Sequence record: DRR723986_2294
Direction: 5' to 3' (one strand)
Length of the DNA stretch: 54,409 bases
This document shows positions 39,711 to 41,715 of the stretch, in pieces (position 1 is the first letter of the stretch; each line of letters opens with the position of its first letter). Both the position numbers and the translations under genes were made by a program. Below the pieces are notes generated by a model. It had not been told where the DNA came from, made no database searches, and was given only the letters and a program-made list of their open reading frames with translations.

Positions 39711-41141
39711 TTAAGCGTCAGATTGCCAAGCATTGATTTTTCGGTAAAGCGTTGATGGATTAACCTCCAGAGCTTTGGCGGCTTTGCGTACCCGCCCGCC
39801 GGACAGGACAACGGCTCGTTCGATGGCGCGCCTCTCCACAACAGCGAGGGGTTCGATGCCACCATTGTTGGCGGAAGAAAAGCTGGGAACAGCTGAGTGC
39901 GTACCCAGAGATTGACCAGTAATTTCAGGGGTACTCCCCCCCGGTGCGCTTGCGCGCTTCACAGGCATGGAGCCCAAAAGGGGCCTGAGCATTTCTTCGG
40001 TTAACTCTACTGAGTCGTTTAGTACAACAATGCTTTGGATCACATTCCCTAATTCGCGCACATTACCGGGCCAGCTATGGGCTAACAGGCGGTCGCTTGC
40101 TTCTGGGGTAAAGTCGGTAAAGCTTTTGCCTTCTTCGGCGGAAAAAATATTGAGAAAATGTTTGGCAATTTCCAGCACGTCTTGGTTGCGCTGGGCTAGT
40201 GACGGCATATGAATTGGCACAACATGAAGCCGGTAATACAGGTCTTCCCGGAAACGGCCTTCTGCTACTTCTTCGGCAGGGATTCTATTTGTTGCGCACA
40301 CGAAACGAACATCAACGTTGATTGGCTGGTTGCTTCCCACCGGCACCACCTGGCCCGTTTGAATGAACCGAAGCAGCTTGGTTTGCAGGTCGAGCGGCAT
40401 CTCGCATATTTCATCCAGAAATAACGTGCCTCCATCGGCGGCCACTGCCGCGCCGTCTCTGTCTGATGCAGCCCCGGTAAATGCGCCTTTAACATGGCCA
40501 AAAATCTCGCTTTCGATCAGATTTTCGGGAATTGCTGCACAATTTAACGCCACAAAGCGTTTGTTTTTTCGCGGACTTAGATGGTGGATAGCCTCAGCAC
40601 ATAACTCTTTGCCGGTGCCTGATGGCCCCACGATAAAAACGCTAGCCTTTGAGGGCGCGCTGTCTTCTATCATCCGATATACCGCTTGCATTACAGGGCT
40701 GCTACCAATGAAGCGATCAAACTTTTTAGCCGGTCCACCGCTATATTGCTTCACAAGGTTGGATAGGCGGGAAATTTCAAGCGCGTTGTTAACGGTGGTG
40801 GTAAGTCGCTCTGCGGTGAAAGGTTTAAGCAAAAAGTCGGACGCGCCGTTTCTCATGGCCTCAACAGCAATGGTCACGGAGCCATGCGCAGTGATAACAA
40901 TGACTCTTGAGGCAATTTTGTTGGTTTGGAGTTGCTTTAAAATATCAATGCCGTCCATGTCGGGCAGCTTTAGGTCCAGCAATATTATTGAGGGGGTTAA
41001 GGCATCAATTTTTTCAAGCGCTTCCTGGCCAGTTTCAGCGATATGGCACGTAATATCGAGCGGTTTCAAATATTCACGGTAAGTCATTGCCAGCGTGGGG
41101 CTGTCTTCAATAATCAGAACATTTTCTTGGTTTTTAACCAT
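39711..41141 (-). CDS. Sigma54-dependent response regulator (REC-AAA+-HTH), LuxO-like
   Basis: REC domain (IIED, [16 protein letters not shown], KPF); [58 protein letters not shown]. Start could be 41153. Confidence 0.93.
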   Translation of the reverse strand: [476 protein letters not shown]

Positions 41142-41178
41142 TTGAACCCCCATTTTATTGGTTTCATGAGCCAGCCTA

Positions 41179-41223
41179 GTGCAAATTGCATCAATGCCCA
41201 AGCATAGTTATTGCAATATGCAA
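41179..41223. promoter_or_regulatory. Tandem LuxO-type binding boxes
   Basis: TTGCA-ATA-TGCAA at 41211-41223 is an exact TTGCA-W3-TGCAA. GTGCA-AAT-TGCAT at 41179-41191 is a near match. The boxes are 32 bp apart. Confidence 0.7.
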
Positions 41224-41331
41224 CAGTGGTTTTAAGAAAATTGTAGTGAGTTGGTGACGAAAGTTTTACCGCTAAGGCCATATAATACGAATATATTTAG
41301 CGAATCGGCCTCGAGGCTTGGAAGAAACCCA

Positions 41332-41715
41332 ATGACCCATACTCACATATCAGACCATGACAAGCACACTCTTACTAAACAGCGTCCGCCGGAGTTTCTC
41401 GGTGGGTCTGCAGATGCCAGAGGGCATCGGCGACGTTCTGTGCTTTGGCCTGCCAATTTACAAGTTGGGCAGCACAACTATACATGCCAGATATGGAACA
41501 TGTCCCTTGGAGGCGCGCGGGTTCGTTTAGGTATGCCGATCAAAGAAGGCGCAAGCGTAAAGCTTACTATTGCGGGTCGCGGCGAAATCCCGGCAACAGT
41601 GCGCTGGTTTAAAAAGAATACAGCGGGACTTTCATTCACGGTGTCGTCAGATGAAGTGCGTCTATTATTTCTTGATAGTCTGCAGTCGCTTGGTCTAGAG
41701 CAGGCGAAAGATTGA
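41332..41715 (+). CDS. Stand-alone PilZ domain protein (c-di-GMP receptor candidate)
   Basis: RGHRR (RxxxR) and NMSLGG (D/NxSxxG) motifs, then ATVRW...GLSF. Confidence 0.9.
   Translation: MTHTHISDHDKHTLTKQRPPEFLGGSADARGHRRRSVLWPANLQVGQHNYTCQIWNMSLGGARVRLGMPIKEGASVKLTIAGRGEIPATVRWFKKNTAGLSFTVSSDEVRLLFLDSLQSLGLEQAKD

Follow-up and report, generated by a model that had tools for sequence, protein, structure and literature searches.

We analyse here two divergent genes in a 54,409-base stretch of DNA from sequence record DRR723986_2294, which is called the window below and is always meant at its full length. On the minus strand lies a gene for a regulator that resembles LuxO of Vibrio, and on the plus strand a gene for a stand-alone PilZ protein. 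The two share a 190-bp control region, in which two palindromes of the LuxO-binding type are found. A first-pass annotation, made from the sequence alone, had proposed that both LuxO and its DNA specificity are conserved in an alphaproteobacterium, with pilZ taking the place of the sigma-54-activated qrr1 gene. As will be seen, the regulator belongs to the LuxO family, the gene pair is conserved, the boxes are kept in the nearest relatives, and no sigma-54 promoter points toward pilZ; the boxes would on balance rather serve repression of the regulator's own gene. The features of the locus are the following.

39711..41141, minus strand: LuxO/SypG-family sigma-54 enhancer-binding response regulator of 476 amino acids, with receiver (REC), AAA+ and Fis-type helix-turn-helix (HTH) domains, assigned from the open reading frame and from Pfam, NCBIfam and PDB matches.
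41173..41178, minus strand: TAGGCT, putative -10 hexamer of the regulator promoter; a TA-initial hexamer abuts box 1 in relatives as well.
41179..41191, no strand: box 1, GTGCAAATTGCAT, a LuxO-type palindrome with two mismatches, whose aligned counterparts at the nearest loci are of the (A/G)TGCAAAATGCAG type.
41196..41201, minus strand: TTGGGC, putative -35 hexamer of the regulator promoter, between the boxes; a CCCAAG-like block is conserved in the alignment.
41211..41223, no strand: box 2, TTGCAATATGCAA, which fits the published upstream activating sequence (UAS) motif of LuxO, TTGCAWWWTGCAA, without mismatch and is the only such site in the window.
41230..41245, plus strand: conserved AT-rich element TTTTAAGAAAATTGTA upstream of pilZ, kept as TTTAnGAAAATTnTA family-wide, boxless loci included.
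41251..41270, plus strand: conserved block TTGGTGACGAAAGTTTTACC with 11-bp-phased repeats GTGAC/TTTAC, kept in nearly all PilZ-linked loci.
41281..41286, plus strand: TATAAT, putative pilZ -10 hexamer; a TAnnnT-like hexamer stands at a fixed distance from the block in relatives.
41332..41715, plus strand: stand-alone PilZ-domain protein of 127 amino acids, assigned from Pfam PilZ, invariant motifs, an AlphaFold2 model and Foldseek.

The open reading frame of the regulator spans 39711..41201 on the minus strand, with the stop codon at 39711-39713, and contains all four peptide segments quoted in the first-pass annotation. Its likely start is the ATG at 41141, which stands behind a GGGGG ribosome-binding site, agrees with the N-termini of the orthologues and gives a protein of 476 amino acids. 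Pfam bears out the REC-AAA+-HTH architecture, with Response_reg at residues 8-117, Sigma54_activat at 145-311, AAA_lid_14, and HTH_8 at 432-472. The residues of the REC pocket (D13, D56, T84 and K106) and the GAFTGA motif (219-224) are invariant among 37 orthologues, and with these conserved residues intact the regulator is predicted to be a phosphorylatable, sigma-54-competent member of the LuxO family. In an alignment of 25 proteins its recognition helix reads NPSTLYRK, compared to SPSTIYRK for true LuxO and to GRSTLYRK for proteins of the NtrC type, and it thus has the (S/N)PSTxYRK pattern that marks the LuxO/SypG superclade.

At the position of the LuxO linker glycine, the regulator has Arg143 (FDRFIG vs YQGFIG of true LuxO), and R, K, N, D, A, E or P is found there across the PilZ-linked clade. 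This glycine of the receiver-catalytic (R-C) linker (Gly141 in V. angustum, G145 in V. cholerae) is described as necessary for the autoinhibition of LuxO, in which the linker occupies the ATP site (PMC4878744). The Walker A motif (window 40617-40640, residues 172-179) reads GPSGTGKE in the window protein and its nearest relatives, and GESGTGKE in most of the aligned enhancer-binding proteins.

The best of the 18,950 models of the NCBIfam library for the regulator is the Vibrio LuxO equivalog NF041946, with 612.3 bits (E 5.5e-184) over model positions 2-462 of 463. The ntrC, NtrX and FlbD models give 395.8, 315.4 and 292.7 bits, respectively, and by these scores the regulator is not closer to FlbD, NtrC or NtrX than to LuxO. 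It does not, however, reach the curated cut-off of the LuxO model, which is 800 bits. As references for true LuxO, we searched this model against 81 genomes from the order to which Aeromonas belongs; in three of them a protein passes the cut-off (856-863 bits), and each of these also has a second LuxO-like gene scoring 602-611 bits. With the three true LuxO proteins the regulator shares 51-54% identity, and its best match among solved structures is the REC-AAA+ part of LuxO (5ep0, 458 bits), followed by NtrC1 with 312 bits.

In the careful IQ-TREE analysis (53 rows, LG+G4, with the bootstrap not fully settled), all LuxO-like proteins, the regulator included, form one clade against the NtrC-type outgroups with a support of 100/100, and a quick tree of 76 rows recovers this clade at 100. 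The PilZ-linked proteins of Kordiimonas-type bacteria constitute a clade of their own (99/90). True LuxO (100/100) and the second Vibrionaceae paralogue fall together in a group of gammaproteobacterial proteins; how the subclades branch relative to one another is not settled by the careful tree, with which the quick trees agree. Orthology with TacA is not claimed: the Caulobacter control genome, on which the comparison rests, holds no strongly LuxO-like protein, with a match to the LuxO model at E up to 1e-100 and none at E up to 1e-150. The literature search returned no link between TacA and LuxO, and passages of the TacA paper contain no binding motif.

The family model, LuxO as the best structural match, the tree and the recognition helix together support the assignment of the regulator to the LuxO family. 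It is best placed in a PilZ-linked subfamily of its own within the LuxO/SypG superclade rather than treated as a strict LuxO orthologue, because four features of the latter are missing, namely the linker glycine, a score over the equivalog cut-off, an adjacent luxU and a Qrr. The placement suggested in the first-pass annotation thus holds as far as the grouping with LuxO- and SypG-like proteins and the separation from the NtrC type are concerned, the regulator falling in a separate clade from LuxO itself.

We now turn our attention to the control region. The UAS_LuxO motif is given as TTGCAWWWTGCAA, and V. fischeri qrr1 is described as having two such sites, at -93 and -127, 34 bp apart (bioRxiv 10.1101/2022.04.27.489697). 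In the window, both boxes noted earlier are present at the coordinates listed above, with box 2 beginning 70 bp upstream of the regulator start codon and the centres of the two boxes 32 bp apart. A GG-N10-GC sigma-54 element is not found on either strand of the intergenic region, and Rfam returns no Qrr or other RNA family in or near it, even at E up to 10. This agrees with the earlier remark that no Qrr core is seen, and the search performs as expected on the positive control: a divergent Rfam Qrr turns up at each of the three true luxO loci, which also have a GG-N10-GC promoter (CTGGCATGAAGGATGCA in L217) and, 85-103 bp upstream of luxO, a single exact box.

The orthologous loci were examined in a set of 53 (the window, L085-L111 and L192-L216). 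The exact relaxed box TYGCAWWWWGCRA occurs in 9 of the 40 PilZ-linked intergenic regions, compared to a mean of 0.003 in 1000 shuffles. An alignment of the ten closest intergenic regions places both palindromes at the same positions in the 9 loci that are at least 76% identical, box 1 as (A/G)TGCAAAATGCAG and box 2 as T(C/T)GCAWWWWGC(A/G)A followed by CA. The changes in the half-sites are symmetric, for example from TTGCA..TGCAA to TCGCA..TGCGA. Near-exact boxes are also seen in L093 and L094, the pair in L093 being 32 bp apart. On the regulator strand, 8 of the 9 loci at 76% regulator identity or more have a hexamer with initial TA directly against box 1, and a TTGGGC-like hexamer lies 17 bp upstream of the TA hexamer, such that box 1 would fill most of the 17-bp spacer of the putative promoter. 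The LuxO-type boxes are real in the nearest clade, but they are not a sigma-54 enhancer for pilZ. Elsewhere in the window, TTGTATTATGCAA at 43205-43217 has one mismatch to the LuxO box; this site is within the coding sequence of fmt and probably matches by chance.

The open reading frame of the PilZ protein is listed from a TTG at 41251 and its stop ends at 41715; the ATG at 41332 is the likely start and gives 127 amino acids. The description of the divergent gene as a stand-alone PilZ with both motifs for cyclic di-GMP (c-di-GMP) is correct. Pfam PilZ (PF07238) matches with 42.8 bits, and R30, R34 and R35 of the RxxxR motif, S58 and G61 of N/DxSxxG, and also W39, are invariant in 37 orthologues. 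The AlphaFold2 model (predicted local distance difference test 77.9) has a disordered stretch of 29 residues at the beginning and two helices at the C-terminus. With this model, Foldseek retrieves structures of PilZ domains in complex with c-di-GMP, the best at E 4.9e-6, and among them are MapZ and PA0012/TssZ, two stand-alone adaptors; a PDB search by sequence gave no relevant match. The protein has thus the predicted fold and both motifs of a c-di-GMP receptor domain, and binding of the ligand is predicted. Its sequence subfamily gives 66 matches, solely in Kordiimonas-type bacteria and none with a functional name. Tandem duplicated PilZ genes adjoin the regulator in L092 (G056) and in G063:C51, and G063 has five PilZ paralogues of the subfamily.

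All three elements upstream of pilZ are kept across the family with or without boxes, and the block at 41251..41270 is present in about 30 boxless loci. This block is probably the region of an activator-dependent, non-sigma-54 pilZ promoter, and the putative -10 hexamer would place the boxes near -76 (box 2) and -108 (box 1). With no GG-N10-GC element and with the pilZ block retained where boxes are missing, the proposal that pilZ replaces qrr1 as the sigma-54-activated target is not sustained. We also considered TTGGTGAC-N6-TTTACC as a non-canonical sigma-54 promoter, and rejected it on account of the missing GC at -12 and the wrong spacing. Readings of the block as a sigma-32, FliA, EcfG or CtrA-box element do not fit by eye.

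The closest named genome is that of Kordiimonas sediminis, whose regulator is 62% identical. Within the K. sediminis family, 42 of 45 genomes have an orthologue of the regulator (E up to 1e-150; 59-81% identity), and in the order sample a LuxO-like protein is found in 22 of 61 genomes (E up to 1e-120). A metagenome scan gave relatives of at most 54% identity among the matches listed. Where the regulator is at least 53% identical, 40 of the 42 loci carry the pilZ gene divergent from it, which answers in the affirmative the earlier question of synteny in relatives; the two others, L095 and L100, have the regulator and no PilZ in the 1.5-kb flanks. Beside the 47-51% identical paralogues, divergent pilZ is found in none of 11 loci. 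A PilZ profile detects an orthologue above 100 bits in 44 of the 45 family genomes, nearly always next to the regulator. Both genes are missing from G095, and in G096 the regulator is missing and the PilZ has diverged (108 bits). By gene order, then, the regulator and its divergent pilZ form a two-gene module conserved across the family. In G093 (C6:427243-428130), the match to the regulator next to PilZ is confined to residues 183-475, in an open frame of 299 residues, and the gene is possibly truncated or frameshifted.

The surroundings consist of housekeeping genes; one flank has glnD, mutS and maeB, the opposite one def, fmt, truA, ptsN and hpf. Two of the neighbours bear directly on the regulator:

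37364-39676, plus strand: maeB, NADP-malic enzyme (773 bits), which converges on the regulator and ends 34 bp from its stop.
47666..49255, minus strand: rpoN (sigma-54), 6.5 kb from the regulator (NCBIfam sigma-54 model, 699.4 bits), the factor needed by an activator with an intact GAFTGA motif.

Both were noticed in the first-pass annotation, as was the absence of a luxU-like gene for a histidine phosphotransfer (HPt) protein directly downstream, where maeB is found instead. The HPt search proposed there was fruitful in another way: each of the three closest genomes has, as phosphodonors encoded away from the locus, 3-5 HPt-containing open reading frames, including stand-alone ones of 119-128 amino acids. 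The suggested connection to motility found no counterpart in our results; that the module is linked to c-di-GMP is plausible from the gene neighbourhood. Farther away in the window, at 15066-16774, a gene for an extracytoplasmic function-type sigma factor is followed by two small open reading frames without family matches, which may be an anti-sigma pair.

Boxes were also sought beyond the PilZ-linked loci. Clusters of at least two adjoin 9 of 45 other LuxO-like genes and none of 34 NtrC-type genes, and because they accompany the former and not the latter, the box specificity appears to be family-wide. Regulon scans were made in the genomes of relatives, where the relaxed box occurs 8-17 times per genome in the five closest, compared to 0-4 for a reversed control. 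In the three closest genomes (G075, G082 and G083; 80-81% identity) the PilZ-linked protein is the only LuxO-like one. These three share with G081 a three-box array, each box followed by CA and spaced by 21-22 bp, which lies upstream of a gene for a 150-residue protein of no recognised family and then two TonB-dependent receptor genes (L231 ~1450-1520, L235 ~1500-1570, L236 ~1420-1490 and L232 1533-1586). In all four related genomes the array is located ~49 bp upstream of a -10-like TATACT before the 150-residue gene, and there is no sigma-54 promoter at it. An assignment of this protein by eye as FliL-like was dropped: it has no Pfam match, and its neighbours are TonB-dependent receptors, SBBP repeat and BLUF proteins.

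In G081 and G089, most of the boxes fall within an island where an H-NOX gene and polysaccharide genes occur along with canonical sigma-54 promoters. The island (G089:C5:362-383 kb and G081:C12; loci L233, L234 and L240-L242) has boxes and promoters upstream of H-NOX, glycosyltransferase and pyruvyl-transferase genes in a syp-like layout. It surrounds a second, 50-51% identical LuxO-like paralogue and is not counted here as a regulon of the PilZ-linked protein. A similar arrangement is present in Aurantiacibacter marinus (L029:3300-5434), with six boxes at ~21-bp spacing ahead of the canonical sigma-54 promoter TGGCACGTCTCGTGCT, behind which H-NOX and LuxO-like genes follow, and likewise in L027 and L045; this is apparently an autoregulated operon with a nitric oxide (NO) sensor in an alphaproteobacterium. 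More generally, the neighbours of other LuxO-like genes include hybrid kinase-HPt genes (L012, L025, L107, L108 and L228), an HPt gene (L227) and H-NOX genes (L011, L022, L029, L033 and L045). In the genomes of the Vibrionaceae order that have a true LuxO (L227-L229), the second LuxO-like gene stands beside HPt or hybrid-kinase genes and glycosyltransferase genes and is probably SypG; no LuxO box with at most one mismatch is found at these second-paralogue loci. Longer palindromes, ACTTGCA-N3-TGCAAGT in two copies, are seen between an HxlR-family gene and a gene of unidentified family (L230:1407-1455 and L243:1549-1598), and these are probably HxlR operators that mimic LuxO boxes.

On the role of the boxes in the window, the reading that we favour, with the balance of probability on its side if only by little, is that the regulator binds them and represses its own transcription. 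An orphan LuxO/SypG-family response regulator of a Kordiimonas-like alphaproteobacterium, with the DNA-reading helix of LuxO retained, would most likely bind both TTGCA-N3-TGCAA-type palindromes of the shared region. Box 1 would be situated inside the spacer of the sigma-70-type promoter that serves the regulator gene itself, with box 2 just upstream of the -35 hexamer, and it is because of the position of box 1 in this putative spacer that autorepression is the best reading. The bound regulator would then exert the same negative feedback as Vibrio LuxO does at its box, LuxO being reported to repress its own gene (PMC3130561). The pilZ gene would be read from a separate, conserved promoter, and since this appears to be of a non-sigma-54 type, pilZ would not be a sigma-54-activated replacement for qrr1.

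It should be pointed out that several observations weigh against autorepression. In the window, sites with at most two mismatches are not enriched (10 observed vs 13.8 expected) and box 1, with its two mismatches, is at chance level when judged from the window alone; the case for non-chance boxes comes therefore from the relatives. There, the earlier claim that the DNA specificity is conserved stands for the nearest ones, in which the boxes align, and fails beyond them: 31 of the 40 PilZ-linked loci have no exact relaxed box, and the whole group at 66-70% identity has none, showing other conserved sequence near the regulator start instead, so that box-based autoregulation is not family-wide. 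A scan for consensus sigma-70 promoters called none in the intergenic region, the assignment of the -35 and -10 hexamers being a reading of the alignment. Furthermore, since the GAFTGA motif is intact, sigma-54 targets are expected, and none was found. The proposed scan for boxes paired with GG-N10-GC gave a negative outcome, since in G075, the closest genome, not one of 14 canonical sigma-54 promoters has a box in the 400 bp upstream, and a gapped box-to-TGGCA search in the three closest genomes yielded only one site, which lacks the GC at -12; the same search did recover the H-NOX promoters of G081 and G089.

One alternative is that the boxes mainly control pilZ, the regulator activating or repressing a non-sigma-54 promoter from near -76 and -108 such that a phosphorelay input sets the level of a c-di-GMP receptor. 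The boxes do lie within a control region shared by the divergent genes, their distances to the pilZ start resemble the -93 and -127 described for the UAS_LuxO sites of V. fischeri qrr1, and the three-box array, which also precedes a non-sigma-54 -10-like TATACT, indicates that the regulator may act at promoters of this kind. However, the pilZ promoter block is unchanged in the boxless loci, and the sigma-54 route of enhancer-binding proteins is closed with no GG-N10-GC element at hand, and we consider this scenario unlikely. The coupling could instead occur at the protein level, with PilZ, in the presence or absence of c-di-GMP, binding to the regulator and controlling its phosphorylation, ATPase activity or DNA binding, and with the boxes being autoregulatory only. 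The persistence of the pair where boxes are missing and the loss of the linker glycine are the reasons why PilZ may act on the regulator protein: the two genes stay together in 40 of 42 loci, boxes or not, PilZ accompanies the family almost throughout (44 of 45 genomes, with G095 lacking both), and the autoinhibitory glycine is replaced by Arg143, or by K, N, D, A, E or P in the clade. A signal input usually adjoins other LuxO-like genes, and the PilZ-linked clade has only PilZ there. Stand-alone PilZ adaptors that bind regulators are also known, such as TssZ with HinK (PMC10912698) and MapZ with CheR1 (PDB 5xly). On the other hand, the basis of this idea is the gene neighbourhood, and G096 keeps a diverged PilZ and no regulator, with the reverse seen in L095 and L100. 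We regard protein-level coupling as a doubtful but conceivable mechanism, and equally tentative is its more specific form, in which PilZ would be the c-di-GMP-sensing input that gates a LuxO-family activator freed of linker-glycine autoinhibition. Such coupling and autorepression can hold together.

It could also be imagined that the palindromes are operators of another transcription factor or mere chance, and that the regulator has a different specificity. The longer palindromes beside HxlR genes, probably belonging to HxlR, demonstrate that not every TTGCA-N3-TGCAA-like site is of the LuxO type, and TTGCA is also the -12 consensus of sigma-54. Against this, the boxes are aligned exactly at the start of a LuxO-like gene and share the trailing CA with the three-box arrays, the recognition helix is nearly identical to that of LuxO, and 9 loci were observed vs 0.003 in shuffles, which makes this explanation very improbable.

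Compared to Vibrio LuxO, the regulator has the same REC-AAA+-HTH build with GAFTGA and the phospho-acceptor Asp intact, a near-identical recognition helix, and a TTGCAWWWTGCAA box 70-100 bp upstream of its gene in a divergent control region, with autorepression probable. It differs in scoring below the equivalog cut-off and in having Arg in place of the linker Gly, and, unlike in the LuxO-qrr1 arrangement, there is no adjacent luxU, Qrr or divergent sigma-54 promoter, the partner being a pilZ gene. SypG, the Vibrionaceae paralogue of LuxO at the syp polysaccharide locus, belongs to the same superclade and is described as a LuxO-like protein with overlapping DNA specificity and an output other than quorum sensing (bioRxiv 10.1101/2022.04.27.489697). 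SypG is, however, encoded inside its target polysaccharide locus together with a kinase and activates sigma-54 promoters there, whereas the surroundings of the window gene are of the housekeeping kind (mutS, maeB, def, fmt), PilZ alone standing next to it. The H-NOX-linked LuxO-like regulators of Aurantiacibacter, Marinomonas and Halieaceae, and the second paralogue of some Kordiimonas relatives, share the superclade and the type of box, but their boxes feed canonical sigma-54 promoters and their neighbour is an NO sensor or a kinase, neither of which is seen in the PilZ-linked clade.

The PilZ protein, for its part, resembles the stand-alone adaptors of the MapZ-CheR1, TssZ/PA0012-HinK and MotI/DgrA systems in its single PilZ domain, both c-di-GMP motifs and a matching fold. 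Adaptors of this kind are described as acting through the binding of partner proteins (PMC10912698). In contrast to them, the partner of the window protein is a candidate only, and the subfamily is found just in Kordiimonas-type bacteria. Activators of the sigma-54 type that are linked to c-di-GMP include FleQ and VpsR, which bind the nucleotide themselves; here, if the link exists, a separate PilZ protein would be the sensor.

To our knowledge, LuxO has been studied almost only in the Vibrionaceae, as a hub of quorum sensing, and a LuxO-like/PilZ module was not described, by title or abstract, among the literature matches listed. The present results show a wide distribution of the LuxO/SypG family and its DNA motif among Proteobacteria, with each lineage adding a different adjacent input gene, which can be a hybrid kinase-HPt, H-NOX or PilZ. 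In the cultivable, non-pathogenic marine Kordiimonas, the PilZ-linked clade offers a conserved and tractable case of how a LuxO-type integrator couples to c-di-GMP, and it also allows one to ask what role an activator has that lacks a sigma-54 promoter beside its sites. If PilZ does gate the regulator, the pair would connect c-di-GMP to sigma-54 transcription by way of two proteins, unlike FleQ and VpsR, and the module would be an integrator of the quorum-sensing type rewired to a second messenger.

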